Below are positions 8,786 through 39,909 of a stretch of 64,000 nucleotides of DNA, piece after piece. The DNA comes from an uncultured delta proteobacterium (GTDB taxonomy: Bacteria; Desulfobacterota; RBG-13-43-22). Numbering within the stretch: position 1 is the first letter of the stretch; every line of letters begins with the position of its first letter. The stretch covers positions 416,001 through 480,000 of the forward strand of contig CAVQFQ010000004.1 of the NCBI GenBank assembly GCA_963711835.1, given 5' to 3'. Position numbers and translations under genes: made by a program. The notes beneath the pieces are model-generated. The model ran no database searches and was not told the DNA's origin. It saw only the letters and a list, made by a program, of their open reading frames with translations.

Positions 8786-9088
8786 GGTAACGTTCAACAG
8801 TTATGGCAATGGCGTATTATTGCCTGACTGGGGGACCGGGGGTCTCGATTTCAAGGTTGTCCGAAAGGGTATCCGCAGCCCCCAACCCGGCCCGAATTTC
8901 TAAGTTGGTTGGGAGCCGGGCATTCACCTAAGACGATAAATCGCTTTGGTGTTGGCCTGTTTCTAAATCCACTTATAACTTCCTGCCCGGGGTCAGGGTG
9001 CCGGCGTTTTGGCGGACAATCCTTGAAATCGAAACCCCCGATCCCTTTGGGTATCAGAAATAGTATGCCTCAACTTTTGAACGTTACT
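8786..9088 (-). mobile_element. MITE-like element, end type A, shared hairpin core
   Basis: TIRs GGTAACGTTCAACAGTT / AACTTTTGAACGTTACT; flanks TGTCTTTT / TTTCTTTT (7/8); core homologous to the 26.0, 39.0 and 39.6 kb copies. Confidence 0.85.
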
Positions 9089-9094
9089 TTTCTT

Positions 9095-9367
9095 TTAGTT
9101 CTTCTCTTTAAACTCCCGCACCATGGGCCCCAGGATATCCTTGGCCATCTCGGACAGCTCGTCGGCTTTGAGGAGAAACAGGCAGCAGACCTTGCCGTCT
9201 TTCTCCCAGCTCATCACCGCCAGCTTGTCGCCGGGTCGGATCTGGGCTTTTTCCCGGATCTCTTTGGGCAGGACCATCTGGCCCCGGTCATCGACACTGA
9301 CCAGGGATTCCATCCGGTAGCGGCCGGCCGTAGGGCTGCAACAGGGCTCCTTGCTTTTTCCAGCCAC
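9095..9367 (-). CDS. AbrB-fold protein of the HgcAB-associated (HgcC-like) type
   Basis: SVDDRGQMVLPKEIR...GDKL AbrB/SpoVT signature plus two CC pairs; GGAGG RBS and GTG start. Confidence 0.75.
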   Translation of the reverse strand: MAGKSKEPCCSPTAGRYRMESLVSVDDRGQMVLPKEIREKAQIRPGDKLAVMSWEKDGKVCCLFLLKADELSEMAKDILGPMVREFKEKN

Positions 9368-9404
9368 CGTATCACCTCCACTCTTTTATCAGAAAAATAT
9401 AATT

Positions 9405-9422
9405 AATCAGATTATTCTGATT
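9405..9422. promoter_or_regulatory. Palindromic operator upstream of the HgcC-like/arsM unit
   Basis: AATCAGA-TTAT-TCTGATT; minus-strand TTGACA at 9459-9454. Confidence 0.5.
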
Positions 9423-9592
9423 TATCTGTATATGTAAAACAGAGAAGAGGGTTTGTCAATAGGTTTTTACTTAAGTGTCTCCACCCGGAAATCACAGATT
9501 TTCGGATAAGCACAAATTAAATCTTTTCTTTTTTTTAGGAGTATTATAGGAATTAAAGTTGTCTCCAAAGAATCCCCCTGGGAGGAAAGATT

Positions 9593-10933
9593 ATGCCGTC
9601 ACCCCAATTGCCTCCTTACGACCATCAGCCGAAACCTTATTCCGGTCCATCCCCGGAAGAGGTCTTGGCCCTCCGGAAGCAGGTTCTCAACCCAGGGCTG
9701 CTCACCTATTATCAGCAGCCGCTCATGATCGTCGAAGGATCCATGCAGTATGTTTATGATGAAAAGGGGCGCCGTTATCTGGATGCCTTTGCCGGGGTGG
9801 TCTCCATCAGCGTCGGCCATGGCCATCCTTATGTTCTACAGAAGGCCCGGGAGCAACTCGAACTCCTGCCTTACTTGCCCACTCTTTATCTGCACCCCCG
9901 GATATCCGAATATGGCCGGATGCTGGCCGAAAAGATGCCCGGGGATTTGAAGGTCTGCCACTTTGTCAATTCCGGATCGGAAGCCAACGAGTTGGCTTTG
10001 CTGATGGCCCGCCTTTACACCGGCAACTACGAGATTATCGCCTTGCGTAATGCCTACCACGGCAACAGCGCCTCGACCATGGGGCTGACGGCCCACAGCA
10101 CCTGGAAATATAACACACCCCATAGCTTTGGAGTCCATCACGCCCAGGCGCCCTACCCCTACCGGGGCCTCTGGGGCCAAGAAGATCCCGAGGCCGGGGC
10201 CAATTATGCCGCGGACATCAAGAGCCTGATCGACTATGCCACCCCGGGCCGGGTGGCGGGCTTTTTTGCCGAGTCTATTCAAGGCGTCGGCGGGGCCGTG
10301 GTTTATCCCGACGGCTACCTGGAACGAGCCTATGCCCATGTCCGCCAGGCTGGGGGGCTGTGTATTGCTGATGAGGTTCAAACCGGTTTCGGGCGCACCG
10401 GGACCCATTTCTGGGGATTTGAAACCCAAGGGGTCCTGCCGGATATCGTCACCATGGCTAAAGGCATCGGCAACGGCATCCCTTTGGCCGCGGTCGTTAC
10501 CAGGCCGGAAATCGCCCGGGTTCTGGCCGAGCGGATCCACTTCAATACCTTCGGGGGAAACCCGTTCTGCTGCGCCATAGGGAAAGCCGTCCTGGAAGTG
10601 ATCGAGCGGGAAGGTCTTCAGCGAAACTGCCTGGAACAGGGTGACTATCTGTTGGATGGCTTAAAAAAACTGGCCTCCAGGCACAGCCTGATCGGGGAGG
10701 TGCGCGGTAAAGGATTAATGATCGGGGTGGAGCTGGTACGGGATTTAAAGACCAAAGAACCGGCCTCGGAGGCATGTGCCCGGGTCTTTGAGAGGGTTAA
10801 GGAATTGGGGGTGCTGATTGGAAAAGGAGGCTTCTTCGGGAATGTCCTTCGTATCAAGCCCCCCATGTGCCTGACTCGGCCGGATGTGGATTTTCTGATT
10901 GAAGTTCTGGATCTGGCCCTGAAGGAAGTTTAG
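9593..10933 (+). CDS. Class III PLP aminotransferase (alanine-glyoxylate aminotransferase 2-like)
   Basis: [32 protein letters not shown] and NTFGGNP. Confidence 0.9.
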
Positions 10934-10968
10934 GCCAGATCCTCACAAGTTATAATCGGCGACGTGTT

Positions 10969-11304
10969 TTAGTACCTCCGGCCGCCTCCTCCGCCGCCGC
11001 TTCGACCGCCCCCGCCGCTGCGGCCGCCACCGAAGCCTCTTCCCCCTCCCGATTCTTTTCGGGGTTTGGCTTCGTTGACAATCAGTTTTTTGCCGTAAAG
11101 TTCTCCATTGTTGAACGATTTAATGACCTCGGCCGCTTCCTCCTCCGTATCCATTTCCACAAAACCGAAACCCCGGGAAAGGCCGGTATAGCGATCCCGG
11201 ACGATCTGGACCGAAACCACCTTTCCGAGTTGCTCGAAATTATGACGCAGATCATCTTCGGTTGCTTCCTGGGCCAAATTGCCGATGTAAATTTTTTTCT
11301 CCAT
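10969..11304 (-). CDS. RRM RNA-binding protein with Gly-rich tail
   Basis: RNP2 IYIGNL and RNP1 RGFGFVEM. Confidence 0.95.
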   Translation of the reverse strand: MEKKIYIGNLAQEATEDDLRHNFEQLGKVVSVQIVRDRYTGLSRGFGFVEMDTEEEAAEVIKSFNNGELYGKKLIVNEAKPRKESGGGRGFGGGRSGGGGRSGGGGGGRRY

Positions 11305-11537
11305 GCTGGGTCTCCTCCTTCAGATAAGGGTTACTGCCTAAAAAAATAACCCGCCTTGATTTTAGTAGTCCCGGCGGGTTATTCTCAACGGTTTGAACTT
11401 ACTAAAATTATTTGTCTTGAGTGGGTGTCCTGAACTCAAACATCACATTCGATTAGGCGTATTATAATCGAAAAGCACCCTTTGGTCAAGGAAAAAGGTG
11501 GGATCCTTTCCGACGCTGAAATTCACTATCCGAAAAG

Positions 11538-11638
11538 AAAATTATCCCCCTATCGGCCAAGACCGTGCCCGGCAGTTTCCGGGCGGTCGAGGGTCCTGGG
11601 ATGCTTTCACCGTCTTGTCGGCCGATAAGAATAATTTT
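11538..11638. repeat. About 100 bp element with imperfect 27-bp terminal inverted repeats
   Basis: AAAATTATCCCCCTATCGGCCAAGACCG versus CGTCTTGTCGGCCGATAAGAATAATTTT. Confidence 0.55.
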
Positions 11639-11956
11639 TCATATCGGAGGGGCGATGGTCACCAGAAGCCTGAGGTCGGTATCGGCGGCCAGCCCATGGG
11701 GTTCGCTGATGTCGCAGACCAAAACGTCCCCTTTCCGGGCCGGTATCTCGCTGTTGTCTTTGCCCAAAAACTTTCCTGAGCCTTCCAGGACCACCAGGCA
11801 CACCTGTCCCTCGATGTCGTGGGCGTGGACCGGTAAAAGCTGTCCGGCCTTAAAGTTGAAATTGAGGATTTTGAAGTAAGGTGAGTCATGGACCAAAAGC
11901 CTCTTGAAGGACAGGTCGGCGAAATCATTGGCTTCATAGAGATTGACCTTTTTCAT
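11639..11956 (-). CDS. Small cupin domain protein
   Basis: PVHAH...VLEGSG...PHG cupin motifs; GGAGG RBS. Confidence 0.85.
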   Translation of the reverse strand: MKKVNLYEANDFADLSFKRLLVHDSPYFKILNFNFKAGQLLPVHAHDIEGQVCLVVLEGSGKFLGKDNSEIPARKGDVLVCDISEPHGLAADTDLRLLVTIAPPI

Positions 11957-12158
11957 CTTTCCTCCTTTTTCATTCTCTTAACCTTTTTCCCCCTTAAATA
12001 TAAAGTTTTTCTTCCCTTACATCCATATTAAAATGACTAGGATGCCGGTATTATGGTCAAACAAACTGGCATCTAAGTTATGCTAACCAATTAATTATTA
12101 TATTAAATTAAGATTATCCCTTCTCACTTTCGGAAGGTAATGTAATTCTGAAAATTTT

Positions 12159-13706
12159 TTAATCGGTGATAACTAAGGGAAGATATATCTTATGACTTGA
12201 ATTATTAGCTGTCTTAAAAATCCCAGTAATATAGAGGTCTCTGTTCATGGTCAGGGTGCAGGAAGGATTGGTTCCGCTGCAGGCGTCCCTAACCACCCGG
12301 CAAATTCCGATCCGGAATTGGGTGTAGCCGTCAGGGTCACAACCGTCCCGGCACTAAATCTGTCTCCGGGAGGGTTCTTTACTATGGTACCGCGCCCCGA
12401 ACCAACTTTGAAAACTTGGAGAGAATAATTGATATTGGTGAGAGTTAAGAAGGAAGCGTTGATGTTGTGGTTAGCTGTGACGTTACTGAAGGTATAACTT
12501 GTCACCGCCCCAACCGAGGTCCCATCCGCGGTAACAGCGGCCACCCGATAGCCCGCGGCCGGGGTAATAGTGAAGGTTCGGCTGGCGCCATAATTGACCG
12601 TGGTGGTGCCGGCAGGGGAGATAGAGCCGTTGGCCCCGGCCGTTGCCGTGATCGTATAGGCCTTTAGATTGAAACCGGCTGTTTTCGTGGTATTGCTGTT
12701 CATGGTCACGGTGCAGGTGAGGCTGGACCCGCACCCCCCGGACCAGCCGCTAAAAACCGAACTGGCGTCGGCTGTCGCCGTCAGAGTCACCAACGTTCCT
12801 GGGTTGAAAGAAGATCCTGTCGGACTGTTGGTGACAGAGCCGGTTCCAGTCCCATTTTTCAAAACCGTCAACGTATAGGTAGTGCCAATAGCAAAAGTCG
12901 CGGAAATCGTATGATTAGCCGTAACATTACTGAAGGTGTAACTTGTCACCGCCCCTACCGAGGTCCCATCTACGGTAACCGCGGCCACCCGATAGCCCGC
13001 GGCCGGGGTAATAGTAAAGGTTCGGCTGGCGCCATGAATTGACCGTGGTAGTGCCGGCAGGGGAGATAGAGCCGTTGGCCCCGGCCGTGGCCGTGATCGT
13101 ATAGGTCTTTAGGTTGAAAGCGGCTGTTATCCGTGGTATTGCTGTTCATGGTCACGGTGCAGGTGGGGCTGGTCCCGCTGCAGCCCCCGGACCAGCCGCT
13201 AAAAACCGAACTGGCATCGGCTGTCGCCGTCAGGGTCACCGCACGCCCCCAATGCATAGGCCTCGGAACAGTCTGTCCCGCAACCAATGCCTGTTGCTGA
13301 AACGGTCCCGGTCCCATTCCCCTGCTTGGTCACCGTCAGGGTCAGCTGTTTGAACCGATGAAGAATAGCTTACCTCGTTGGAATAGCCGCTGCTCGCGCC
13401 TTGGGTATTTTCGGCAGTCAAGGCAAAGTAGTAAGTTGTTCCAGCATTCAAGTTAGTGAGGGTATAAATGAGGTTCAAACCCACATCGATATGTTGCGAG
13501 TAGGTCATGGATGCTGTTCCGTAATGAAGCCTATATCTTGCCAAATTTGATTCGGTATTGGGGTCCCAGGCCAGGGTGACCTGGGCCGAAAAACTGATTG
13601 ATGGAAGAATAAAGAGGAAGAATAAGACCAGGGTGGGAAGACAAAACCTTGAGAGGAGGGATAGGAATCCCTTCACCCGGTTTCTTTGGGAATCTATAAA
13701 AGCCAT
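12159..13706 (-). pseudogene. Exported FN3 + divergent InlB B-repeat surface protein, split by several frameshifts (possibly sequencing errors)
   Basis: Signal peptide, VTLAWDPN...YYFALTA FN3 domain, tandem VTLTATAD...FSGWSGGC and YTITATAGANGSISP repeats over 4 frames; final frame ends KIYLPLVITD* at 12159. Confidence 0.75.
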
Positions 13707-13809
13707 TTTATATATCCATCACTTTAACCTTTATTAGGATTAGCGAATTACTGAGTGACTTCCTCAAATGGATTTATTATTTTCTTGGTTGATTAACTAA
13801 AAAACCCGA

Positions 13810-13825
13810 TGCATTTTTTGTTCCA
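13810..13825 (-). promoter_or_regulatory. Putative sigma54 -24/-12 promoter
   Basis: TGGAACAAAAAATGCA (GG-N10-GC) about 100 bp upstream of the FN3 gene. Confidence 0.45.
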
Positions 13826-14100
13826 CCAGCCTTTCATTGTTAAATACGATTAAATATCGTCTGCTTATCTTTTAGGAAGAAAACTTCAAATCCACTTTGA
13901 TGCAGGAAAATCCAGACGAAATTATTTTAAAAGGGGAACGAATTAAGCGGTTAGATTTGGGCTGGTTTTTAACTTACTATTATAAAAGCGTTTTTTCGCG
14001 GCTGCCAAATGAAGGGTTTCCCACACACCCCACTTGGAATAATTTGACGGAAGAGGAAGTGACATTATTGCCCTGTTAGAGTCGGGGACAAACCAATTTG

Positions 14101-14428
14101 GCATATCGGAGGGGCGATGGTCACCAGAAGCCTGAGGTCGGTATCGGCTGCCAGACCATGGGTTCGCTGATGTCGCAGACCGGAACGTCACGTTTCCGGG
14201 CCGGCATCTCGCTGTTGTCTACCTAAAAACTTTCCGGAGCCTTCCAGGACCGACCAGGCAGTTTACCGTGTCCCTCGACTGTCGTGGGCAGTGGACCGGC
14301 GGGATAATGCTGGCTCCGGCCTTGAAGTTGAAATTCAGGATCTTGAGGTCAGGCGAATCGTGGACCAAGAGCCTCTTGAAGGACAGGTCGGCGAAATCAT
14401 CGGCTTCATAAAGATTGACCTTTTTCAT
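14101..14428 (-). pseudogene. Second, frameshifted copy of the cupin gene
   Basis: Near-identical to 11639-11956, with synonymous substitutions, many 1-bp indels and a lost stop. Confidence 0.8.
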
Positions 14429-14688
14429 TTTTCCTCCTTTGCGGGCGTTTCCTGAAATCCCTTCGCCGGCCGTCAGGGTTTATCCGGAAACCTTCCCCGA
14501 CCCTATCCGGCAGCTTCTCCGTCCATTCTTTCGGAATGTATAAATGAATTTCGCTTTTTTTATTTTGACAACCATAGCATAGGTGTCGTATTTTTTTTAA
14601 TATAAAAATACTGGTTCATTAAACGCTTTCCCCTGGCTGGCACCAAACGCCGATTTCAGTCTTTCGTCCACGACGATAAGCGGTCACC

Positions 14689-15309
14689 ATGGACCTATCC
14701 ACCTTGCTCTATTTTCTCGGCGCATCGATCGCCCTTACCTTAGCTCCCGGTCCTGACAACCTCTTTGTCATTACGCAGGGAATTACCCGGGGAAGGAAGC
14801 CGGCCATCATTACCGCCATTGGGATGTGCAGCGGGATCAGTATCCATACCACGGCAGCGGCTTTCGGAATCTCGGCGGTATTCTATTCCTCGGCCGTTGC
14901 CTTCAAGGCCGTCAAGTACGCCGGAGCAGCCTACCTGCTGATCCTGGCCTATAAAACGCTGAAGCAACGCTCCGCCATAAAACTCGCGATCGCTGATGAT
15001 CGGACTGCTGTCGCCTTGTTTAAGCGGGGATTTATTATGAATGTCCTCAATCCGAAGGTGGCCATGTTCTTTCTGGCTTTTCTGCCGCAGTTCGTGACCT
15101 CCCAGACCCGCTATTTCCCCCTCCAGCTGCTGCTGCTGGGATTCATCTTCATGGTGCAGGGCGTAATCATTTTTTCTCTGATCGGCTATTTCTCGGGCAG
15201 TATCGGCAAGTTCATCCTGGCCCGGCCAAAGATCGCGAAGGTTTGTGACTGGTTGACAGCCGGGATCCTGGCTTCCTTAGGCGTCAAATTGGCCCTGGCT
15301 GAACGATGA
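14689..15309 (+). CDS. LysE/RhtB family exporter
   Basis: APGPDN, GAAYL and NVLNPKVAMFFLAFLPQF. Confidence 0.9.
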   Translation: MDLSTLLYFLGASIALTLAPGPDNLFVITQGITRGRKPAIITAIGMCSGISIHTTAAAFGISAVFYSSAVAFKAVKYAGAAYLLILAYKTLKQRSAIKLAIADDRTAVALFKRGFIMNVLNPKVAMFFLAFLPQFVTSQTRYFPLQLLLLGFIFMVQGVIIFSLIGYFSGSIGKFILARPKIAKVCDWLTAGILASLGVKLALAER

Positions 15310-15458
15310 TCCTGGATCAGGGAACCCGGATGCTGCACCGGTCCGAACATGTTCCCTCTTAAATTTTTATTGATCCAAGATAAAATTCGGTTGACACTTT
15401 TTTAAAATTTATATAACATCTTAATAATTCAATGAAATTTAAAGGACGGGAAGAAGCT

Positions 15459-15857
15459 ATGGAAGTTAAGGATGTTAAGGCCTTGTTTACCGATGAAACG
15501 CTCAAAATGATTTTTCCAGCTCAAAAGGCGGACCAGTTTTTTGAGGCCTTATATGGGGATGTGGAGGAAGGGGCTTATGACATCAGGTTGAAGTTTAAAG
15601 ACCATGATCCGGCTCGAAAGAATCTCACTTTTTTAATTGAACTTATTGAAAGAAAAGGGAAATGTCTTGTTTGCAACCTGACTTACGGCCTGCCGGAAGT
15701 CTTTTCGCGGCACCCTGTTATTAATATAAATGGGATCGTCAGGGAGATTGAAAAGCTGTTAGGAAAGACGGCCGAAGGGAGCCGTTGGTCTTTGGGGAAG
15801 ACCCTGCCGGTTTCCAATACGCTTCATGCCATCCCCCTGATTATCTCCCTTAAATGA
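15459..15857 (+). CDS. Conserved hypothetical protein with CxxC
   Basis: FFEALYGD...GKCLVCNLTYGLPEVFSRHP, a motif I recall from sulfate-reducer proteins; TTGACA/TATAAC promoter upstream. Confidence 0.7.
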   Translation: MEVKDVKALFTDETLKMIFPAQKADQFFEALYGDVEEGAYDIRLKFKDHDPARKNLTFLIELIERKGKCLVCNLTYGLPEVFSRHPVININGIVREIEKLLGKTAEGSRWSLGKTLPVSNTLHAIPLIISLK

Positions 15858-15904
15858 TCTGTAACAGTGTCCGACAAGTCAGGAGGGTCTCGCCGGAATC
15901 CTAA

Positions 15905-16648
15905 ATGATCGAAAACGAATATGAAAAGATGTATCGGCTGGAGGACACGCATTGGTGGTTCCGGGCCAAAAGAAATTATGTAAAGACCGTCCTGGATCTG
16001 TTCCTGAAAAAGAAACACCTGAGAATATTGGATCTGGGTTGCGGCACGGGCCGGATGGTGGACTTGTTGCAGGAATATGGTGCGGTTTTCGGATTGGACT
16101 TTCACCAAGGGGCCTGCCATTTTGCCCGCCGTCGAAAAGAGTTCCCCCTGGTCCGGGGAGATGCCAACCGCCTTCCCTTTAAAAAGAACTCGTTTGATCT
16201 TATCAGCGCTTTTGATTTATTATACCACCAGGGAATAGGAAACGACCAATACGTCCTGGAACAGGCCTATGATTTGTTGACCCAGGGAGGCACCCTCATC
16301 ATTACCGATTCGGCCTTCGAATTCTTGAAAAGCCGGCACGATCTGGCCGTCATGGCCCGTCACCGCTATACCCTGAGAGAGCTTACCGATAAACTTCAGG
16401 GCCAGGGGTTTACCATTATAAAAAAAACCTATCTCTACTTTGTACTTTTTCCGTTGGTGGCGGTTTCCAGACTGGCGAACAAAATAATATTAGCCCTTAG
16501 CCAGCCCGAAATCCGTTCCGATCTAAAAGAAACTCCCAATTCAATCAATGGGTTACTGGTTAGGCTGTTATCCTGGGAAGGGAGGCTGTTGAAATATTTA
16601 AGCTTTCCTATGGGTTCCTCTCTTTTAATCTTGGCCAAAAGGAATTAA
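15905..16648 (+). CDS. Class I SAM-dependent methyltransferase
   Basis: EDTHWWF and ILDLGCGTG. Confidence 0.85.
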   Translation: MIENEYEKMYRLEDTHWWFRAKRNYVKTVLDLFLKKKHLRILDLGCGTGRMVDLLQEYGAVFGLDFHQGACHFARRRKEFPLVRGDANRLPFKKNSFDLISAFDLLYHQGIGNDQYVLEQAYDLLTQGGTLIITDSAFEFLKSRHDLAVMARHRYTLRELTDKLQGQGFTIIKKTYLYFVLFPLVAVSRLANKIILALSQPEIRSDLKETPNSINGLLVRLLSWEGRLLKYLSFPMGSSLLILAKRN

Positions 16649-16651
16649 ATC

Positions 16652-17017
16652 GTGGCCCATCTCCTTTTAATCTTCATATCCGTTATACTGACCGCGGCCG
16701 GCCAGTTATGTTTCCGGAAAGGCATGGCCGGGATTCAGGCCGCCCAGGAAAAAGCAGCCCTCGGTAAACTGATTCTCTCCGGTTTATTGAACGGATACGT
16801 GCTCACCGGTTTTATCTTCTTTGGAGCCGGTGCTTTGCTCTGGCTGGGAGTTCTGGCCAAAGAGGAAGTCAGCTACGCTTATCCCCTCTCCAGCCTCGGT
16901 TACCTAATCGTCCTTCTGGGGTCCTCACTCTTATTCCAGGAACAGGTCACCCTGCCCAGAATATTGGGCGTCCTCTTCATCCTGATCGGGGTCTTTTTGG
17001 TTGAAATCAGCCGCTGA
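16652..17017 (+). CDS. SMR/EamA-type small membrane protein (ArnE/ArnF-like)
   Basis: 4 TM segments, GQLCFRKG and VSYAYP. Confidence 0.75.
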   Translation: MAHLLLIFISVILTAAGQLCFRKGMAGIQAAQEKAALGKLILSGLLNGYVLTGFIFFGAGALLWLGVLAKEEVSYAYPLSSLGYLIVLLGSSLLFQEQVTLPRILGVLFILIGVFLVEISR

Positions 17018-17090
17018 ATAACAGCCCTTCGGGCCGGCCATCGGTCTCTTTTTGAGCCCAGCCTCCCGGGCCTGGTCTCTCCCGGGGAAA

Positions 17091-17116
17091 ATATTGATTG
17101 ACAAATCAATCAATAT
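17091..17116. promoter_or_regulatory. Probable TetR operator overlapping a -35 box
   Basis: Perfect 11-bp inverted repeat ATATTGATTGA-CAAA-TCAATCAATAT containing TTGACA, 20 bp before the TetR ATG. Confidence 0.7.
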
Positions 17117-17135
17117 CTGCTAACAGCCTATCCAT

Positions 17136-17771: not shown

Positions 17772-17786
17772 GTAAAAGGAATTCTT

Positions 17787-18932: not shown

Positions 18933-18940
18933 AGGCCAAC

Positions 18941-24680: not shown

Positions 24681-25133
24681 ATGGACTTTCAGCTCGGCAA
24701 AAGTTATGATGAAATACAGATAGGGGATAAGGCCTCCTTTTCCAAGACCATTACCGAAACCGATGTCTACCTCTTTGCCGGCATCAGCGGGGATTTCAAT
24801 CCCATGCACGTCAATGAGGAATTCGCCAAGCTGACGCCTTTCAAGACCCGGATTGCCCATGGGGCCTTGCCCCAAAGCCTGATCGCACCGGTCTTGGGTA
24901 CCAGACTCCCGGGTCTGGGAACCGTGGCCGTAGAAATAACCACCCGTTTTAGAAAACCGACTTTTTTCGGAGATACGGTCACGGCCACGGCCGAAGTGAT
25001 TGAAAAGATCGAGATTAAAAAAAGGGTCCGGATGAAACTGACCTGGACCAATCAGCGCCGGGAACTTATCGGCGACGGGGAAGCCTTGGTCATCCCCCCG
25101 CCGAAGATGGAAGAGTTAATAACCGCCTTATAA
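24681..25133 (+). CDS. MaoC-type (R)-specific enoyl-CoA hydratase
   Basis: SGDFNPMH...RIAHG; GGAG RBS before the ATG at 24681. Confidence 0.9.
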   Translation: MDFQLGKSYDEIQIGDKASFSKTITETDVYLFAGISGDFNPMHVNEEFAKLTPFKTRIAHGALPQSLIAPVLGTRLPGLGTVAVEITTRFRKPTFFGDTVTATAEVIEKIEIKKRVRMKLTWTNQRRELIGDGEALVIPPPKMEELITAL

Positions 25134-25360
25134 TGGTATCTAACCGATGGGGCCGCTTTTTCTTCCGTCTGTGGCTTTCGGGCTGGTCTTTTTTCCGGAC
25201 TTATCCAGGGGGTATCCCTTACCCCTTCCGCATTCTCGCCCGCTAAAAATCAGCGGTCGAGTCCCGCTGTAGCGGGATTTCCCCATGGGTAAGTCCGGAA
25301 AAGACGGCGCCCTTTCGCCAATGACTCCAGAATAAACAGCCCAACCGGTTTGGGTAACGT
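25133..25360. mobile_element. Second hairpin-forming dispersed repeat (family C), copy 1
   Basis: 25157-25244 recurs at 63914-64000; internal stem 25181-25207 / 25286-25311; degenerate terminal repeats. Confidence 0.65.
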
Positions 25361-25433
25361 CAGTCTTATCGTGAGATTGTTATTAACACCAAAAGGGGAG
25401 AACCCCGAATTCAACACAAAGGAGGAAATTAAA

Positions 25434-25856: not shown

Positions 25857-25885
25857 GTAGGGGCGGGCTTCAGGCCCGCCCCTGC
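25857..25885. repeat. GTAG-type REP-like hairpin
   Basis: GTAG followed by GGGCGGGC-TTCAG-GCCCGCCC. Confidence 0.6.
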
Positions 25886-25941
25886 GATCCGACCGGGGCC
25901 AGTCGGGCTGGGGAAGAAACAGGCTAAATGCTTTAATCTTT

Positions 25942-26273
25942 GGGATAGTCCCAAAGTTACGTGATTATCAAACTGAAGGGGTAGCCTCTTAAGATAGTAA
26001 ATCACCCCAAAGAGCTTCAGGGGTCTTGATTTCAAGGATCGTCCGCCAAAACGCCGGCAGCTTGAACCCGAGCAGGAAGTTTATAAGTGGCGTTAGAAAC
26101 AGGCCAACACCAAAGCGAGTTATCATCTTGGGTGAATGCCCGGCTCCTAGCCAACTTAGAAATTAGGGCCGGGTTGGGGCTATGGACATCCTTTCGGACG
26201 ACCTTGAAATCAAGACCCCTGAAGCTCTCGACGAATGGATAGCTTAAAAATCACGTAACCTTGGGACAAACTC
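25942..26273 (+). mobile_element. MITE-like element, end type B, shared hairpin core
   Basis: 25-bp TIRs GGGATAGTCCCAAAGTTACGTGATT / AATCACGTAACCTTGGGACAAACTC (21/25); perfect 8-bp duplication TAATCTTT. Confidence 0.9.
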
Positions 26274-26297
26274 TAATCTTTAAATGGTAAGGGTGCT

Positions 26298-30020: not shown

Positions 30021-30029
30021 GGAGGAATT

Positions 30030-31211: not shown

Positions 31212-31219
31212 ATAAACAG

Positions 31220-31280: not shown

Positions 31281-31348
31281 GTTTCACACCTTAATTTTTA
31301 GTCCCACATCAATACCCTGCACTTCAGGCCTTACGACTTTAGGAGGAA

Positions 31349-33145
31349 ATGATGGAAACCATCTCCACGGTATTCCTCAGGCAGGTCATGAAATACCAAA
31401 CCCGTCCTGCTTTGATGGTTAAAAAGGAAGGGACCTATCAGCCCCTTTCCTGGCAGGATTGGTATGAACAGGTGGCCTCATTCGGCCTGGGACTTCATGA
31501 CTTGGAGATCGGCCCCGGAGATGCCGTGGCCATCCTCTGCAACAACCGCCCCGAGTGGATGACCGCCGATCTGGCCATCTTAGGTCTGGGGGCTATGACC
31601 ATTCCCATCTATGCCACCAACACCGCTGATCAGGCGGCCTTTATCCTTCAAGACGCCCGATGCAAGGCTGTCATTGTAGAAAACCCCGATCAGTGGCAAA
31701 AAATTGCCCTGGTCAAGAACCGACTGACTGATTTGAACACGGTCATCCAAATGGACGGGCTCCCTCATTCCACCTCAAACCGTTTGGCCTTTTTCGATGT
31801 TCTGGCCAAAGGCCTGGGCCTGCTGAAAACGGATCCGGGCCTTTTCCCCAGGCTTTCTTCTCAGGCTCTCCCGGAAGATATCTGTACCATTGTCTATACT
31901 TCAGGAACCACCGGGCCTCCCAAAGGGGCCATGCTCAGCCATGATAATATCCTCTCCGTAATCCGGATGCTCGGCCGGGTTGTTCCGGCCACCGACCGGG
32001 ACAGCTACGTATCCTTTCTGCCTCTCTCCCATGTCTTTGAAAGGATCGGAGGCTTTTTCAACGGCATCTATGTCGGGGTAACCATTTTCCTTGCCGAAAG
32101 CATGGATACCCTGGCCCGGAATATCCAGGAGGCTAAGCCCACCATTCTCATGACCGTCCCTCGACTGCTGGAAAAGGTCTATGCCACGATTCAGAATCGC
32201 GTCAAGGAGGAGTCCTCCACCAAGCAGGCAATTTTTAACTGGTCCCAAAAAATAGGCCGGGAAAAGGGTCGCCGGCAGATGTTGAATCAAGCCGTGCCCT
32301 TCAGCCTGCGCTGGAAACATGCCCTGGCCTATCAACTGGTTTTTAGAAAATTGAAACAGGCTTTAGGTGGAAGGATTCGGTTCCTGGTTTCCGCCGGTGC
32401 CCCCATCTCCCAAGAAATCGTCGAGTTTTTCAGCGCCGCTGGTCTTTACGTTATGGAAGGGTACGGGGCCACGGAAACCTCGGCTCCGGTCTCGGTCAAT
32501 GTCCTGGATGATTATCGTTTCGGAACAGTCGGCAAACCGCTGCCCGGGGTGGAAATTCGGATTGATCCCCTAAACGGCGAGATCCTGGTTAAGGGCGGGA
32601 ATATCTTTAAGGGTTACACCAACCTCCCGGGAGGAAACGGCCCGGTCCTTCACCGAAGACGGGTTTTTCCGCACCGGCGATGTAGGGCACCTGGATAAAG
32701 ACGGGTTTCTGGTTATTACCGACCGCATTAAAGATTTGATCATTACCTCCGGCGGCAAAAATGTAGCCCCCCAGAATATCGAGAACCTTTTCAAAGGCGA
32801 TCCCCTTTTCAGCCAGGTGGTCATTATCGGGGAACGGCGGAAATTCTGGCCGCCCTTCTCAACCTTGATCCGGATGAGGTCTCGCGAAAGGGACGGGCCC
32901 TTGGCCTGATAGATCCGGACTTAAATGCTCTGATGGACGACCCGCGTATCCTGGACTGGGTTCGGGATAAGGTACGGGAGAAAAATAAGCGCCTGGCCCG
33001 ATATGAACAGGTAAAAGAATTCCGGATCCTCAAAACCCCCTTCAGCCAGGAGGGCGGCGAACTGACCCCGACCCTGAAACTCCGCCGCAAGGTGATCATG
33101 GAGAAATACAGGGAACTCATCGAATCCATGTATCCTCCTGATTAG
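31349..33145 (+). pseudogene. Long-chain acyl-CoA ligase (AMP-binding), frameshifted near 32630 and 32850 (likely sequencing errors)
   Basis: YTSGTTGPPKG and EGYGATE; continuation RTGDVG...ITDRIKDLIITSGGKN and ELTPTLKLRR in other frames. Confidence 0.85.
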
Positions 33146-33153
33146 GAAATCAA

Positions 33154-33726
33154 TTACGACATCCGGAAAGGGGCTTGCCCTTGACAGGCCAGGCAGATCG
33201 GCCCGTCAGCCGCCGGGTACGATTCCCGACATTGGGCACAGACGGCAAAGGCCCCCCGGCGGCGGACGGCGATAAAATCCGCATCAAGCTTTACGGGGCG
33301 AAAACTGCACAGCGTTGATCCCGCTTCCAAAATCTGTTCATTGAGCGATTGGAGGTTTTGTTGGGCCTTGGGTTTCAGTTTGAAAAACCAGTCCTTGATC
33401 TCCGGCCAGGCTTCCAGCTTAAGAGGATCAACGAATACCCGCACCCCTTCTCCGCCTGGTTTTCGGTAAAGAATCAGGGCATATCGGCCCAGATTCAGGA
33501 CCCGGAGCCAGCCGTTTCCCACCGTGCAGGGCGTCAATAACTGAATGGCATCGGGAAGACACTTGGGGGTCTCGCTCAGGGCGTCATAGAACTCCCCGGG
33601 AGGCAGATGCTTCAGGGCCAGATCCACCATGAAGCCGCCGAGCACCATACCCGGGGCCGGGTGGCCGTGAAAAGCCTCTACCTTTTGAAGGTAATCCTCA
33701 AGAGCGATGGCGCCGACCCTGGTCAT
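33154..33726 (-). CDS. FmdE family protein with C-terminal zinc ribbon
   Basis: FHGHPAPG, CLPDAIQLLTPCTVGNG and CxxC...CxxC; ATGA overlap with the upstream gene. Confidence 0.85.
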   Translation of the reverse strand: MTRVGAIALEDYLQKVEAFHGHPAPGMVLGGFMVDLALKHLPPGEFYDALSETPKCLPDAIQLLTPCTVGNGWLRVLNLGRYALILYRKPGGEGVRVFVDPLKLEAWPEIKDWFFKLKPKAQQNLQSLNEQILEAGSTLCSFRPVKLDADFIAVRRRGAFAVCAQCRESYPAADGPICLACQGQAPFRMS

Positions 33727-35966
33727 GGGGCCGCTTCGATCCGGCAGCACACATAGCGGTGCATGGGCGTTCCCGCGATCGGATCCCGGTGCGTATTTTT
33801 AGTCAGCCGGTTCACGTTGATCCCGTAGATCTTCCCCGGATACTCCAACCCGAACCCATGGGGGATGATAACCGTTCCCGGCCGGGAAGACTCGGCCGTC
33901 TCCAGTTCTATTTCTTCGCTTCCGGCCTCGGTGATGACCCGGACCTTCTGGCCGTCCTTAAAACCCAGCCTGGCGGCATCCCCCGGGTGCATGGCCAGGG
34001 TACAGGCCCGCCGTTCTTTGTTCCAGGCCGGATCACGCATCAAGGTGTTGGCGTTCATATCCATGTGCCGGCCGGCCATCAGGATAAAGGGAAAGTCCTG
34101 GTTTCCTCCCTCCAGGGAGGCCGCCTCGGATTGGGGCTCGATGGATTGAACCCATTCGGCCATTTCGGGGATGTGGATATGGATCCGTTTATCCTCCGTG
34201 GATAGGGCTTCCAGATTATTTTCAGTATCCGATCGTCCGATCCAGAGCCCTTCGGGATGATCCAGTATGGCCTGAAAAATCTGCTCCCCCATAAGAGGTC
34301 CGGGGGTGAACCCGGCCCGGGCGGCGTTCTCCTGAAAACCCTTCGGGGTTGTCTGGAGCAGACCCCAGAGGGCCGCCAGGTTGGCCGATCCCATTTCCTT
34401 CCCTAAGGTTTTGGCCAGGACAAAAGGCATGGCCTTCATGGCCTCTGGGTGTTCCTGGATAAATTGCATCAGGGCCAAACCGTATCCCAGCCGGTCTCCT
34501 TTGACGGCTTCGCGAAGGTTTGGGGGAATCTCGGGGATTAATCCCAGTCGATCAGCCAGAAGAACCATGATCTGGCCTACCTCCAGACGCTCCCCTTCAG
34601 GAGTCAGGACGGGCCGCCGCATCTGGAAATAGATCTCCGGATAGTTCCACGCAAAGAAGGTGCCGTCCCAGGATTCATAGCCGGATCGGGCCGGCAGGAC
34701 ATAATGAGAAAGGACTGCGGTCTCGGTCATGGCCAGTTCGCAGGTCACCAGCAGATCCAGGCTGCGGAAAGCCTGCTCATAGGCGGTGGTATCCGCATAG
34801 GAGCGAAGCGGATTGGATCCGGAGCATAAGACAGCCCGGAGTCTTTCCGGGTGGTCGCTCATGATCTCTTCGGGCATGACATTGGGAGGAAAGGTACCCA
34901 TGATAGCCGGGAAATCGGTGGCTACGGTTCGCCAGGTCCGGGGATCCCGTTCATCGGAATGGGAGCCGATGGGCATGAGATGACCGGGGATGACATTCCC
35001 CCCCGGGACGCCGATGCGCCCGCAAATCGCCAGGAGAATGACGGCCAGGTAAGTGGTGGCCGTGCTGTGCCGATTCATATAAACCCCCAGATCCGGGTGC
35101 AGGGCTGATTTGCGACCGGCAACCAATTGACAGACCCGGCGGACTTGGTCATAGTTCAGTTCGCAGACCTTCACGGCTGCCCGGGCATCAAAGCCCGAAA
35201 ACCAGGGCAGCACCTCTTCGAACCCCTTTACCTGTTGCGACAAATAATCCGCGTCCTGCCACCCTTCCTGAAGGATGATGGCGATCATGGCCCGGGTAAG
35301 CAGGGCATCGGTCCCCGGTTTTATCGGCAGGTGAATATCCGCAATAGCCGCCGTCTCCGTGCGTCTGGGATCAATAACCACCAAGACCTTATCCGGGTCT
35401 TTGGCGAATTTCGTCAGAAAACGACGGGCCTGGGGCATCTGATGACTCATCATGCCGTTCCAGCCGACAGCCAGGAGGACCTCGGTGTTGTCGTGATCGG
35501 GGATGCCGAAGAGGTATTGGCGCCCCACGGCCCGGCCCCAGGCCCAGAAATTGCCGGTCAGTTCCTGGGCCAGGGCGCTGTAGTGATAGTGTGAGCCCAG
35601 GCCGCGCAGCAGCCGGACCCCGAAGGCCGCTTCAAAGTGACAACCCTGGCCCCCGCCTCCCATGTAGGCCAAGGACCGAGGACCATGGGCCGACACGATC
35701 GCCCGAAGCTTCTCGGCGATTTCAGCCAGGGCCTGCTCCCAGGAAATGCGCTCAAAATTACCTCCCACTCGCTTCAGCGGATGATCGAGCCGCTGGGCAT
35801 GATGCTGATGGAAGGCTATGTTGAGGCCTTTGCGGCAGACATAGCCTTGGCTGCGGGGGTTGTCCTGGTCCGGCCGCACCTTGACCAGGCGGTTTTCTTG
35901 AACCTGAACCTCGAGGCCGCAGTTCTGAGCGCAGAGCACACAGGAGGTTTTATGCCACTCCATCAT
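33723..35966 (-). CDS. Molybdopterin (bis-MGD) oxidoreductase with N-terminal 4Fe-4S
   Basis: CVLCAQNC...CRKG, IDPRRTETA, IKPGTD and MTETA; molydop-binding C-terminus; no Tat signal seen. Confidence 0.9.
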   Translation of the reverse strand: MMEWHKTSCVLCAQNCGLEVQVQENRLVKVRPDQDNPRSQGYVCRKGLNIAFHQHHAQRLDHPLKRVGGNFERISWEQALAEIAEKLRAIVSAHGPRSLAYMGGGGQGCHFEAAFGVRLLRGLGSHYHYSALAQELTGNFWAWGRAVGRQYLFGIPDHDNTEVLLAVGWNGMMSHQMPQARRFLTKFAKDPDKVLVVIDPRRTETAAIADIHLPIKPGTDALLTRAMIAIILQEGWQDADYLSQQVKGFEEVLPWFSGFDARAAVKVCELNYDQVRRVCQLVAGRKSALHPDLGVYMNRHSTATTYLAVILLAICGRIGVPGGNVIPGHLMPIGSHSDERDPRTWRTVATDFPAIMGTFPPNVMPEEIMSDHPERLRAVLCSGSNPLRSYADTTAYEQAFRSLDLLVTCELAMTETAVLSHYVLPARSGYESWDGTFFAWNYPEIYFQMRRPVLTPEGERLEVGQIMVLLADRLGLIPEIPPNLREAVKGDRLGYGLALMQFIQEHPEAMKAMPFVLAKTLGKEMGSANLAALWGLLQTTPKGFQENAARAGFTPGPLMGEQIFQAILDHPEGLWIGRSDTENNLEALSTEDKRIHIHIPEMAEWVQSIEPQSEAASLEGGNQDFPFILMAGRHMDMNANTLMRDPAWNKERRACTLAMHPGDAARLGFKDGQKVRVITEAGSEEIELETAESSRPGTVIIPHGFGLEYPGKIYGINVNRLTKNTHRDPIAGTPMHRYVCCRIEAAP

Positions 35967-35994
35967 TGATCCTCTCTTTCCGGGCAAACCCGTC

Positions 35995-36060
35995 GGTATC
36001 GTTCAAAAGGTTGGGCTTTATCTTTTTGATAGCCGATGAAAGGGGACCGGGGGTCCCCTT
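35995..36060 (+). mobile_element. Solo left end of a type A element, no core
   Basis: GGTATCGTTCAAAAGGTT...AAGGGGACCGG matches 38953-39008; no right end seen. Confidence 0.55.
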
Positions 36061-36189
36061 GTCCTTTTCGGAACCCAATGAAAAAAGTATAGGACAGGGA
36101 AGTAACGAGGGTCAAGGAGAAAACAGGGAAAGGAGAGATCTCCTGTCTAAGAAGAGATTAATGCTAAGCGGGCAAGGCGGCTGTTCAGA

Positions 36190-36321
36190 TTAATTCCAGT
36201 AATAGACCAGTCTTCGGATGAGCTGATGTCTTTCCTTGACCGGGAGATCCCAATAGAGAGCACTCTCCATCAGGATAGTGACAATTTCTTCAATAATTTT
36301 TTCTACGGTAAGTTGTTTCAT
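36190..36321 (-). CDS. 43-aa small protein absent from the ORF track
   Basis: MKQLTVEKIIEEIVTILMESALYWDLPVKERHQLIRRLVYYWN*; amphipathic helices; sigma54-like promoter upstream. Confidence 0.6.
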   Translation of the reverse strand: MKQLTVEKIIEEIVTILMESALYWDLPVKERHQLIRRLVYYWN

Positions 36322-36375
36322 AGACCCCATCCCCATGACTAAAAGTTTGAAGGAAATGTTTATGAACCATAATTA

Positions 36376-36391
36376 TGCAAATAGCGTTCCT
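36376..36391 (-). promoter_or_regulatory. Putative sigma54 promoter
   Basis: AGGAACGCTATTTGCA (GG-N10-GC with TTGC). Confidence 0.6.
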
Positions 36392-36537
36392 CCCGCCTGC
36401 ATTTTCAAAAAGAGGGCCGTCGTCGTAAAAACTTGCTGATAATATTAGAGATTTCAATTTGAGGAAACTTCGGGGCTAAAAAGGGCCACAAATAACCGCC
36501 CGGAAGGTGGGAAAAACTTTCTCCTTATTTTCCCTTT

Positions 36538-36582
36538 GGTTGCTTAGACAGTCTGTTTTGAGAATTTATCCCTAACGTTCAA
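36538..36582. repeat. 45-bp box, copy 1 (possible activator-binding site)
   Basis: 37/45 identical to 39458-39502. Confidence 0.65.
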
Positions 36583-38897
36583 TCCTTCTCTTCTAAGACC
36601 TCTTTGACAAAGACAGCCACCAAATCCGGATCAAATTGTGATCCCGCGTGGCCTTCAAGCTCTGCTTTGGCTTCTTCGGGACTGAGGGCCTTGCGATAGG
36701 GCCGGTCGTTCATCATGACATCAAAGGCATCCAGGATAAAAACCATCCTGGCGACCAAGGGGATTTCCTCACCCTTTAAGCCTCTGGGGTATCCTCTCCC
36801 ATCCCACCGTTCATGGGCCGACCAGATCGCTTCGGCAACCGAGGCAATCTCCGGGGTGGCCCTGGCGATGCGGTATCCTGTTTCAGGGTGCTTCTTTATG
36901 ATCTTAAATTCTTGATCGGTCAGGGGGCCGTTTTTATTCAAAATATCATCCGGGATAACGACCTTCCCAATATCGTGGAGTTCCGTGGCCAGGACCACCT
37001 TCTTGGATTCCTCCTCGGACAACCCGACTTTTTCAGCAAACTTTTGGGCCAGGCTCTGCATACGCCCCATGTGTTCTTCGGTGCCGTGGTCCTTTTCAAC
37101 CATGGTGGCCTTGAGGACCGTTAGGATTGATTTTCGGACATCTTCCCGTTTGGGGATCTTTTCCCGAAGAAGCCGCCTGTCCGCTTCCTTGAAGGATTCG
37201 AGCAATGTTTTTGAGAAATCATCCCGGGCATCACCACCCATCGAAACACTGATCGGATGCTTTCCTTTCGGCAATCCATTATTATACGAAAGGAGGCTGT
37301 TTTTAAAACGCAGGACAGCGGCTTCTATCTTGGTTTGGTCGATATTCTTTAAAATTACGGCGAACTCGTCGCCGCCGATCCGGGCGATCACATCGGAAGG
37401 GCGAAAGCTCTTCTTCAGCAGGCCGGCCACCTCTTTTAATAGACGATCCCCTTCCGGGTGCCCGAAGGTATCATTGACGAATTTCAGGCCGTCGATATCG
37501 AGCAACAGGATGCCGACTTTCATCTCCCGCTCATTGGAAAGAAGCCTCATTTCTTCTTCGAAAAAGTTGCGGTTATAGAGACCGGTTAGAGGATCATGGG
37601 TGGCGGCCTGTTTGAGCTGCTCTTCCGCCTGTCGCCTTTCGGTGATATCCCGGAGTATGACCGTCAAGAATTTTTCATTTCCGGTCCGGTAGGAAGCCGC
37701 GGAGATTTCAATAGGGAATTCGGTTCCGTCCTTTTTAAGGCCCAGGGTCTGGATGGTAATCTCGGCTCCCGGTTCGGGATCTTCCATCAGCAGCCGATTA
37801 AATTCATTTTGATAATAATGGTGGTCGTCACTTTCCTTGATCAGGAGGGTAACCGATTCGCCGATCACTTCCTGGTCGGTATAGCCGAAAATGACCTCGC
37901 CAGCCGGGCTCCAGGTTAAAATGGTTCCTTGGCCGTCCAGGGTAAAGATGGCTTCACTGGCCGTCTCGATCAAGGACCGGAACCGTTCCTCGCTGTCGAG
38001 CAGGGCGCTTTCGAACCGTTTTCTTTCTTCGATTTCCTGCTGCATCAATTCGTTGGCGCGGGTTAATTGAGAGGTTCGCCCATCGACCTGGTTTTGATAC
38101 TGCTTGAGTTGTACCAGCATGGTATTAAAGGCCTGAGCCAAGTCAGAGATCTCATCATTGGACTTGATGGAGATATAACCGTCAAATTTCCGGTCGGCAA
38201 TTTCTTCAGCGGCCTTCTGTAAACGCTGGGCCGGAGAGGTTATCCTCTTGGTCAAAAAGAAGGTTAACCCCACCCCGACTAAAACCAGCAGAACGGTAAT
38301 CAAGGCGGTATTCAGGATAAAATGGGAGATCCGGGTATTGATCTTCTCCTGGCCCAGCCCTAAATAAACAAACCCAAGCAGTTGGGGTTGCTTTTTGGAA
38401 TTTCGCGGGTCGTCAATGGAGAATTCAGGCAGGATGACCCCCTCTGAACTTTTCCAGACCGGTGCCCGGACTTCGAAATATTCCTTGCCGTCGCTCTCAT
38501 TAATAAATTCGCCAAACGCGGTTTGCTCCGGTGGTGAGGCCCTGAATCGGCTACCTTCCTTTAATAAGGCCACACTGGGATTAAACAGGATTTCGGTCAG
38601 AATGGTATCTGCCGCGCTTTTAATACGGACATAGACAATGTCCGAGTTCAGGGCCAGCCCCTTAACAATCTGCGACAGGGAGGCCTTATTGCCCTGAAGG
38701 ATTCCCGGCTCACAGGTCTTGGCGGTCATCTCCGCCAGCACCAGGCCGTGATCCAAAAGCTCCTGGCGGACATTTTTCATCTCGGCCTTGACAACAAAAT
38801 AGGATAGACCGACGGCCGTCATCAAAATGGAGAAAATAGTCAGTAAATTGAATTTGGTGGCCAGGCTAAGCCGGATTTTTTTTCGGTTTTTTTTCAT
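36579..38897 (-). CDS. Membrane HAMP-PAS-GGDEF-HD-GYP c-di-GMP enzyme
   Basis: 2 TM segments, HAMP, PAS (DGTEFPIE), RPSD I-site plus GGDEF, LHDIGK and HERWDGRGYP. Confidence 0.92.
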   Translation of the reverse strand: MKKNRKKIRLSLATKFNLLTIFSILMTAVGLSYFVVKAEMKNVRQELLDHGLVLAEMTAKTCEPGILQGNKASLSQIVKGLALNSDIVYVRIKSAADTILTEILFNPSVALLKEGSRFRASPPEQTAFGEFINESDGKEYFEVRAPVWKSSEGVILPEFSIDDPRNSKKQPQLLGFVYLGLGQEKINTRISHFILNTALITVLLVLVGVGLTFFLTKRITSPAQRLQKAAEEIADRKFDGYISIKSNDEISDLAQAFNTMLVQLKQYQNQVDGRTSQLTRANELMQQEIEERKRFESALLDSEERFRSLIETASEAIFTLDGQGTILTWSPAGEVIFGYTDQEVIGESVTLLIKESDDHHYYQNEFNRLLMEDPEPGAEITIQTLGLKKDGTEFPIEISAASYRTGNEKFLTVILRDITERRQAEEQLKQAATHDPLTGLYNRNFFEEEMRLLSNEREMKVGILLLDIDGLKFVNDTFGHPEGDRLLKEVAGLLKKSFRPSDVIARIGGDEFAVILKNIDQTKIEAAVLRFKNSLLSYNNGLPKGKHPISVSMGGDARDDFSKTLLESFKEADRRLLREKIPKREDVRKSILTVLKATMVEKDHGTEEHMGRMQSLAQKFAEKVGLSEEESKKVVLATELHDIGKVVIPDDILNKNGPLTDQEFKIIKKHPETGYRIARATPEIASVAEAIWSAHERWDGRGYPRGLKGEEIPLVARMVFILDAFDVMMNDRPYRKALSPEEAKAELEGHAGSQFDPDLVAVFVKEVLEEKD

Positions 38898-38952
38898 GTC
38901 ACTTGAGAAACAACCCCTTCCGAAATACCCTCTGGCAGGGCGGTAATTTTTT

Positions 38953-39260
38953 GGTATCGTTCAAAAGTTGTGGCATTATATTTCTGATACCGGAGGGAAG
39001 GGGACCGGTGGTCTTGATTTCAAGGTTGTCCACCATAAACTCCTCACTTTGAAACCGGGCTGGAAGGGTGACGATAATGCCTTAAGCAGGCCTTCACCAA
39101 AGCTGTTTGTCCGGTTGGGTGAATGCCCGGCTCTAAACCAACCTTAGAAATCTGGGCCGGATTGGCGGGAAAGATCCCCCTTTGGACAAGCCTTGAAATC
39201 AAGACCACCGGTCCCCAGTCAGGCCATAATGCGCCAATGCCAAAACTTTTGAACGATACT
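38953..39260 (+). mobile_element. MITE-like element, end type A, diverged core
   Basis: TIRs GGTATCGTTCAAAAGTT / AACTTTTGAACGATACT; perfect 8-bp duplication AATTTTTT. Confidence 0.88.
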
Positions 39261-39305
39261 AATTTTTTAGAGAGCTCCAACACTATAAAACCCCCCAAAA
39301 TTATT

Positions 39306-39321
39306 TGCAAATTCTATTCCC
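39306..39321 (-). promoter_or_regulatory. Putative sigma54 promoter
   Basis: GGGAATAGAATTTGCA (GG-N10-GC with TTGC). Confidence 0.5.
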
Positions 39322-39457
39322 GGGATTTAGGTGCCTTGGGGCGGAAAAGCGATTTAAATAACCTATCAAAATAATTAATTAAAACGACTTAGAAGCCTGG
39401 ACTGAAAAATTGGAGGCGCCTTGACCGGCCCAACTATGGTCTAAAACTTCATTTTTT

Positions 39458-39502
39458 AGTTGTTTAGACAGCCTGTTTAGAAAATCTATCTCTAACTTTC
39501 AA
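39458..39502. repeat. 45-bp box, copy 2
   Basis: 37/45 identical to 36538-36582. Confidence 0.65.
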
Positions 39503-39518
39503 GGATAGAAAAAGATAT

Positions 39519-39909
39519 GGAATAGCCAAAGGTTCCGTGATTCTCAACCCGAAGGGGTAGCCTCTTAAAAAATTACATCACCACAAAGGGCTTCGGGGAT
39601 CTTGATTTCAAGGATCGTCTGCCAAAACGCCAGCAGTCTGACCCCGGCAAGTAGTTTATAAGTGGTTTTGAAACAGGCCAACACCAGAGCGATTTACCAT
39701 CTTGGATGAATTCCCGGATCCCAACCAACTTAGTCCGCCGCGGCGGACGGGCCGGGTTCTTCGCATCCAAAACAATGCTCAGTCCCACTCCTGCGGAGTG
39801 GATCCCAGTTTGGGGCTATGGATACCCTTTCGGACAATCTTGAAATCAAGACCCCCGAAGCCCTCGACGAATGGATGGCCTAAAAATCACCTGACCTTGG
39901 GACAAACTC
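39519..39909 (+). mobile_element. MITE-like element, end type B, with two internal insertions
   Basis: Colinear with 25942-26273; flanks AAAGATAT / AAAAATTT (6/8). Confidence 0.85.

Follow-up and report, generated by a model that had tools for sequence, protein, structure and literature searches.

MITEs with ISH6-like ends share a non-coding fold-back core in an uncultured member of the Desulfobacterota

The window, which is the 64,000-nucleotide stretch of contig CAVQFQ010000004.1 analysed here (uncultured delta proteobacterium; Desulfobacterota; RBG-13-43-22), contains four non-coding MITEs in which ends of about 25 bp resembling those of the ISH6 family enclose a fold-back passenger of about 215 bp, designated below as the core, while the sequence around a core is designated as its shell. 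The account that we consider rather probable is that the core is likely immobile by itself, is copied in trans, and has been re-carried via recombination in its stem. The elements are MITE-class members with ISH6 ends that form an apparently undescribed family, and no description of the core family was found in the literature on MITEs, ISH6, and REPINs (ISfinder and subscription journals being outside the scope of this search).

All four elements, their ends, and their core blocks were found where the first-pass annotation had placed them; they are 303–391 bp long, possess paired ends, and lack a transposase. The features are as follows.

8786..9088, no strand: MITE with ISH6 subgroup-A ends (shell subfamily A1) and a B-type core interior
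8832..9045, minus strand relative to the profile: core of this element, 214 bp, with a closing stem of about 33 bp
8778..8785 (left, plus strand) and 9089-9096 (right): 8-bp target duplication of the 8.8-kb A element, 7/8 match
25942..26273, no strand: MITE with ISH6 subgroup-B ends, 8/8 duplication at 25934-25941 and 26274-26281
26011..26228, plus strand: core of the 26-kb B element, with the same private changes against the family consensus in both arms
35995..36058, plus strand: truncated A end, halting at a mini-hairpin stub of the core stem base
38953..39260, no strand: MITE with ISH6 subgroup-A ends (subfamily A2), 8/8 duplication
39000..39216, plus strand: A2-type core, outer stem perfect over 26 bp
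39456..39510, minus strand: right end, without terminal inverted repeat, of the D-type shell around the 39519..39909 B element
39519..39909, no strand: MITE with ISH6 subgroup-B ends, an older copy with a 6/8 duplication, nested in the D-type shell
39588..39864, plus strand: core of this element, 277 bp, with an insert of about 60 bp that starts with a 16-bp palindrome at 39733-39748
39910..39935, minus strand: left end of the D-type shell around the 39519..39909 B element

The neighbours of the four elements are ordinary genes, for example, those of a methyltransferase, an acyl-CoA dehydrogenase, and a GGDEF/HD protein.

The four elements are confirmed as MITEs with 8-bp target duplications. 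The flank agreement claimed earlier (7/8 and 8/8 for type A; 8/8 and 6/8 for type B) was reproduced exactly, and genome-wide the flanking 8-mers agree in at least 7 of 8 positions in 25/34 A and 33/46 B elements, as compared with 5.7% (A) and 4.2% (B) of shuffled flank pairs, while duplication lengths of 7, 9, and 10 tried on the same flanks gave no fit. The search for empty sites that had been proposed was successful for the 38953-39260 copy, for which a contig of a related strain shows an empty site with one T-rich target copy kept; the 8.8-kb copy is missing from another contig, where the junction is imprecise.

These elements are no chance resemblance but belong to a large set. With a profile built from 25 cores, 141 elements were detected in the 3.9-Mb genome, of which 119 carry the full-length core. 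According to shell motifs 32 of these cores lie in A, 46 in B, 21 in D, and 16 in E shells, and 4 are without label, with about three labels erroneous on inspection owing to nesting. The D shell has no terminal repeats, the E shell is flanked by TA, a fifth shell, F, surrounds cores in two other genera, and single examples of further shells occur. The IS-like part of the shells comprises only the terminal 24–30 bases, and the linkers between it and the core vary between shell families and between genomes.

The first-pass annotation likened the A ends to IS6/IS1 and the B ends to IS256, and neither likeness held. A complete IS with A ends (L178) encodes a 459-aa protein that matches the ISH6 model NF041731 with 483 bits (E 5e-145; cut-off 240 bits), and no IS6 or IS1 model is among the matches listed. 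Complete ISs with B ends are 1424–1428 bp long; the single protein tested, that of the 1428-bp L194, reaches 412 bits with NF041731 (E 2e-123), whereas the B-type transposase gains 42 bits with IS256 against a cut-off of 150, and in 17 IS256 loci there was no B end within 3 mismatches. Judged by these transposases, which are 24% identical, the A and B ends are assigned to two subgroups of the ISH6 family. In the sections of PMC3942029 covered here, Mutator-like families including ISH6 are described as producing 8-9-bp duplications, and AANATNTT is given as the ISH6 target motif; 9/25 A and 4/33 B duplications lie within one mismatch of it against a background of 0.7%, the agreement being weaker for B than for A.

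The E ends match those of a 1115-bp IS630-type IS, in which they enclose a DDE_3 transposase; in one case an E-type element has inserted into a D end, and TA is duplicated there. Since A and B both belong to ISH6, the claim that unrelated families are involved rests on the E shell (IS630) and not on A versus B. The A end is widespread, occurring in 33/401 genomes of the phylum. No core profile match was found in complete A-type, B-type, or IS630-type ISs, and an autonomous carrier of the core was found neither in 20 UPF0236/IS256 loci nor in 58 B-end loci other than MITE copies, 30 IS630 loci, or 3 metagenome matches. The view of the elements as non-autonomous and modular is borne out by this absence of the core from the ISs lending their ends and by the incongruent histories of cores and ends described below. 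Partner ISs for shells D and F were sought and not found. A D-end match beside an IS256 gene turned out to be the remnant of a neighbour and not a partner IS, and an idea of an IS110 bridge RNA was abandoned, both IS110 genes of the genome being without core or shell ends; the D ends likewise are not carried by these two loci. Other hairpin passengers are also present in E and D shells, two of them in E, which suggests that packaging of hairpin DNA is common in this lineage.

The inner inverted repeat reported at the core boundary is present but longer than claimed: its arms measure about 33–34 bp (median stem length 34 bp); outward they extend into a shell-associated base, inward as far as TTGTCC. 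Searches with the first model detected the core in at least 19/21 class genomes and those with the second model in 5/5 divergent class members, as against 0/146 phylum genomes outside the class, where stricter filters were applied than within it. Plasmids and phages searched gave no core match, 7 viral pattern matches being rejected as not cores; none of the 24 sequencing runs listed held half of the searched words. A collapsed form of the inner arms, which we take to resemble IS-end hairpins, occurred in 0/301 genomes. As far as these sequences allow, the core is best read as an old passenger of class-wide age and range.

The histories of cores and ends are incongruent. In the window the core of the 8.8-kb A element indeed shares 88.8% interior identity with the 26-kb B core, as compared with 74.1% with the other A core, and when the 119 interiors were placed in one tree, 8 copies with A shells fell among B-shelled ones. 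Seven of these 8 copies belong to one shell subfamily and 1 to the other (29/32 A copies used), so that two events may account for all A copies with a B-type interior. Across genomes, a tree of 57 representatives, obtained after dropping 3 rearranged or decayed rows, needs 12 shell changes against a minimum of 5, with the labels still strongly clustered. A single clade was rejected by AU tests for the A-shelled cores (p 1.3e-6) and for the B-shelled cores (p 0.0099), these values being somewhat favoured, as four rows were joined after the first trees had been viewed. Moreover, the cores in A shells of two relatives fall outside the well-supported clade that holds the A and B cores of this genome. 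Thus the proposed swapping of cargo between end types proved real, but swaps between A and B are few, with most of the swapped copies in one subfamily. The interior mixing in this genome is mainly between A and B, whose arms share the middle, and in the A copies here the stem base is E-like whereas the inner arms are B-like; these mixed arms point to exchange at the shared G-run. Altogether the core appears to have changed carriers several times.

All variable columns in the terminal stem show covariation. The 74 A and B copies compared contain 29 deviations that appear in mirrored form in the two arms, as against 2.25 expected if the arms were independent, some of them shared by descent (distinct variants 10 and 12), while single-arm deviations number 38. 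Among the arm mismatches A-C/C-A (52) and G-U/U-G (54) are equally frequent, favouring neither strand. In four 197-nt variants the arms are extended inward, two of these being nearly whole palindromes. Both core orientations occur in every shell (A 26:3, B 30:9, D 14:7, E 12:2). Short shells mostly retain a stem stub, short A and B copies resemble deletions, and many D stubs finish at the G-run/C-run tip with a central T or A. Template switching is described in the sections of PMC8794818 covered here as yielding longer stems, inverted loops, and multiple compensatory changes, its examples being short RNA hairpin loops and not a loop of 150 nt. By analogy, template switching across the 150-nt loop may be the cause of the arm matching. 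Co-change of the arms at DNA level without G-U strand bias, orientation bias, or interior covariation is in keeping with template switching and speaks against an RNA gene.

The favoured account, in which ISH6-ended MITEs carry the core as a likely hitchhiker and not as an RNA gene, can be set out as a series of predicted steps. Transposases supplied in trans would likely copy the shells; new composites would arise by capture of an existing core, along with 20–50 bp of unrelated flank, between two IS ends; interiors would be traded by gene conversion between copies with common arm sequence; and switching of template in the hairpin would keep the arms matched, invert the loop, or delete it to stubs. 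Persistence of the core would then come from its abundance and easy re-packaging and not from an RNA product. Several observations stand against the hitchhiker reading. The nearly constant boundary and stem length of the core are what a mobile unit with defined ends would show, and the conservation of interior motifs, which are symmetric and kept in sequence across four genera, is not predicted by pure hitchhiking. For the capture step neither a core-free ancestral shell of a core-carrying subfamily nor an intermediate was recognised. Finally, no autonomous ISH6 or IS630 element was found in the assembly of this organism, which is 89% complete.

A further reading, possible but doubtful in our estimation, is one in which the core is a hyperparasite: a class-old, protein-free hairpin with defined ends that would install itself in, or assemble, MITEs from any active IS family (ISH6, IS630, and others) and confer on them a transposition advantage. 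If this were true, the core would outlive each IS family that it borrows. Related to it is the idea, which we judge unlikely, that the core is itself mobile and enters the interiors of MITEs and ISs as a parasite of other transposons, a putative hairpin-reading HUH nuclease or recombinase inserting it without duplicating the target. In agreement with it the core has sharp GG..CC edges in a wide range of unrelated contexts, and those inspected show no duplication where the core begins and ends; its stem is near-constant in length, with the outer boundary kept across unrelated linkers, its arms vary freely between lineages while co-varying, and it is confined to one class. Most A, B, and E stems keep a one-base bulge that could serve for recognition, and the many D stubs ending at the tip also agree with this idea; however, the bulge is missing from F-type and most D-type cores, and the stubs are explained by deletion of the hairpin as well. 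Neither has a naked core been seen among the 119 full copies, 115 of which lie in shells while the inspected ones of the other 4 lie between repeat ends, nor was a core found within about 1.5 kb of 30 Y1-transposase, 22 IS256/UPF0236/IS110, or 30 IS630 loci.

That the core is a functional structured or cis-acting RNA (a nuclease target, for example, or a polymerase decoy resembling 6S RNA) and that core-bearing MITEs are selected because this RNA benefits the host is in our view quite improbable. Such a role would be consistent with the rod-like shape, interrupted by AT-rich internal loops, into which several copies fold, with the symmetric conserved motifs, with interior folding that against shuffles gives mean z values of -1.65 and -1.56 on the two strands (inflated by two palindromic copies), and with contigs of one metatranscriptome covering parts of the elements, although contigs of a multicopy repeat cannot reveal a discrete transcript. 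Nevertheless, the search of the whole window against Rfam returned two tRNAs only at gathering level, and one core searched at E<=10 gave chance-level matches only. Strong covariation is confined to the terminal stem, and neither mismatches nor folding are asymmetric between strands. The orientation with and against co-directional neighbour genes is 32:32, and cores lie between convergent genes in 17/118 cases as compared with 374/2251 background spacers, that is, without enrichment under rough ORF calls. A structured-RNA function of the cargo found no support in Rfam matches, mismatch asymmetry, folding, covariation, or orientation. As for 6S RNA in particular, the genome has no RF00013 match and no PF01812 gene marking the usual locus, and the spacer after zapA, with a 21-nt likeness of -0.2 bits, fails the core profile.

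The presence of both orientations in all four shells, together with one sigma-70-like site in the 39-kb A core, may recall an invertible switch with the 33-bp arms as recombinase sites and an interior promoter flipped by a host invertase. This is very improbable given that the crossover points differ along the arms (the bulge is flipped in 3 copies), that the arm sequence differs between lineages, that scanning for promoters yielded 3 sites where 1.0 +/- 0.9 were expected, with no site in the B core scanned, and that no strand-changing joint is among the matches listed, bearing in mind that contigs drop rare variants. Finally, it is hardly credible that the core is the internal remnant of one known IS to which A and B ends could be aligned: these ends are homologous and both ISH6, but the core is absent from the complete A-type and B-type ISH6 and IS630 elements and is present also in IS630-type and repeat-less shells.

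Non-autonomous IS ends with captured DNA are familiar from mobile insertion cassettes, transporter IS, and plant Pack-MULEs. The core is likewise captured DNA within IS ends; it differs from such passengers in being non-coding, self-complementary, present in more than 100 copies, and common to unrelated end families. ERIC/IRU and Correia/NEMIS are palindromic MITEs with their own ends and duplications that undergo internal deletions and nested insertions; the core is also a fold-back intergenic repeat with deletions and nesting, but it makes no duplication itself and is carried between foreign ends of several types. The ISH6 family corresponds to p-MULT 2 of the Mutator superfamily, with ISDesp5 as an example, in the sections of PMC3942029 covered here, where Pack-MULEs are mentioned in passing and from whose main text the word MITE is absent. 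The present elements resemble ISH6 in the A and B terminal repeats, the 8-bp AT-rich duplications, and the enrichment of the target motif, while differing in the lack of a transposase, with IS-like sequence limited to about 25 terminal bases and a foreign hairpin interior. The likeness to IS630 (Tc1/mariner-related) concerns the ends and the TA duplication of E shells; its transposase family is unrelated to that of ISH6, yet IS630 MITEs hold the same core.

REPINs, as characterised in the sections of PMC3116915 covered here, are free-standing repeats that are bounded by invariant 16-mers and located close to RAYT genes. With regard to these features the core is similar in its long hairpin, compensatory arm changes, extragenic location, and multiple copies, and different in its varying arms, its location in IS-derived shells, and the absence of linkage to Y1 genes. 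Identity with REPINs was rejected, as the invariant REP 16-mers are missing, and so was RAYT linkage: none of 30 Y1 loci had a core nearby, and the nearest core lies 5.8 kb from the own Y1 genes checked (6 of 12).

In summary, these results give no pointer to a new enzyme or pathway, and their importance lies elsewhere. MITE partners are now available for the little-studied bacterial ISH6 family. The core family, with its strong stem covariation and no sign of RNA function, is a warning for the discovery of RNA motifs. Lastly, MITEs are usually viewed as deletion products of one IS that die with that IS, while the occurrence throughout a class of one non-coding module on the ends of at least two unrelated transposase families would be a route to long-term survival for selfish DNA.

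Besides the core, the E and D shells carry other palindromic passengers, and the related elements are as follows.

Elements with the core or other passengers (G000, genome under study; G301, genome outside the class)
Window 25121-25387: E MITE (IS630-type), non-core hairpin passenger
Window 63873-64000: E MITE (IS630-type), non-core hairpin passenger
G000:C13:34215-34509: non-core palindromic passenger, E/D shell group
G000:C4:87114-87439: non-core palindromic passenger, E/D shell group
G000:C25:37184-37367: non-core palindromic passenger, E/D shell group
Window 39456-39935: shell D
G000:C16:105746-106107: shell D
G000:C26:21354: shell D
G000:C4:371098: shell D
G000:C10:53484-55972 (L019): A-type MITE, split core
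G301:C7:310946-311292 (L179): MITE (about 350 bp), B-like ISH6 ends, located outside the class

The two E MITEs of the window share a second hairpin passenger of about 200 bp, which is present in about 11 genome copies and is surrounded by the E shell in every copy with readable flanks; for the element at 25121-25387 an empty site was found, as contigs from two runs skip it. The passengers at the three C13, C4, and C25 loci include tandem 7-mer hairpins. Shell D, a frequent host of B-element insertions, has a CTAA-like sequence at each end and subterminal inverted repeats; terminal repeats are absent. A solitary D-shell right end (window 36538-36580) overlaps the stop codon of a GGDEF/HD gene.

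Within the core consensus the conserved interior motifs are symmetric around the centre with a spacing of roughly 30 bp, as candidate protein sites on the same face would be. Several cores contain an inserted 16-bp GC-rich palindrome (window 39733-39748), also present in other genome repeats. In L019 a 2.2-kb IS interrupts the core, and a direct repeat some 10 bp long accompanies it. The two ORFs of this IS encode an HTH protein and a 451-aa protein that matches DDE_Tnp_1 and, only weakly, an IS4 model. This genome also has, at G000:C17:767718 (L187), a single F-type core with a decayed shell of type F, a form otherwise characteristic of other genera; it may reflect transfer or bin contamination (6.4%).

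Rfam matches to 6S RNA were absent from the entire assembly, including the spacer after zapA (L050, G000:C17:254609-255290), and the assembly yielded no PF01812 gene; a divergent 6S RNA may have escaped recognition. Y1-transposase genes occur in 21/21 class genomes (2-20 per genome), many being of the long RAYT-like type. A GTAG-led REP-like hairpin (window 25857-25884) lies immediately upstream of the B element at 25942-26273. Elsewhere, window 11633-14440 contains tandem coding repeats of about 445 bp and segments duplicated at 2.46-kb spacing.

The passenger of L179 differs from the core, and its closing inverted repeat contains TTATCCACA. Each of the three passengers seen is closed by a TT(A/G/T)TCCA-type motif, which presumably resembles a DnaA box.
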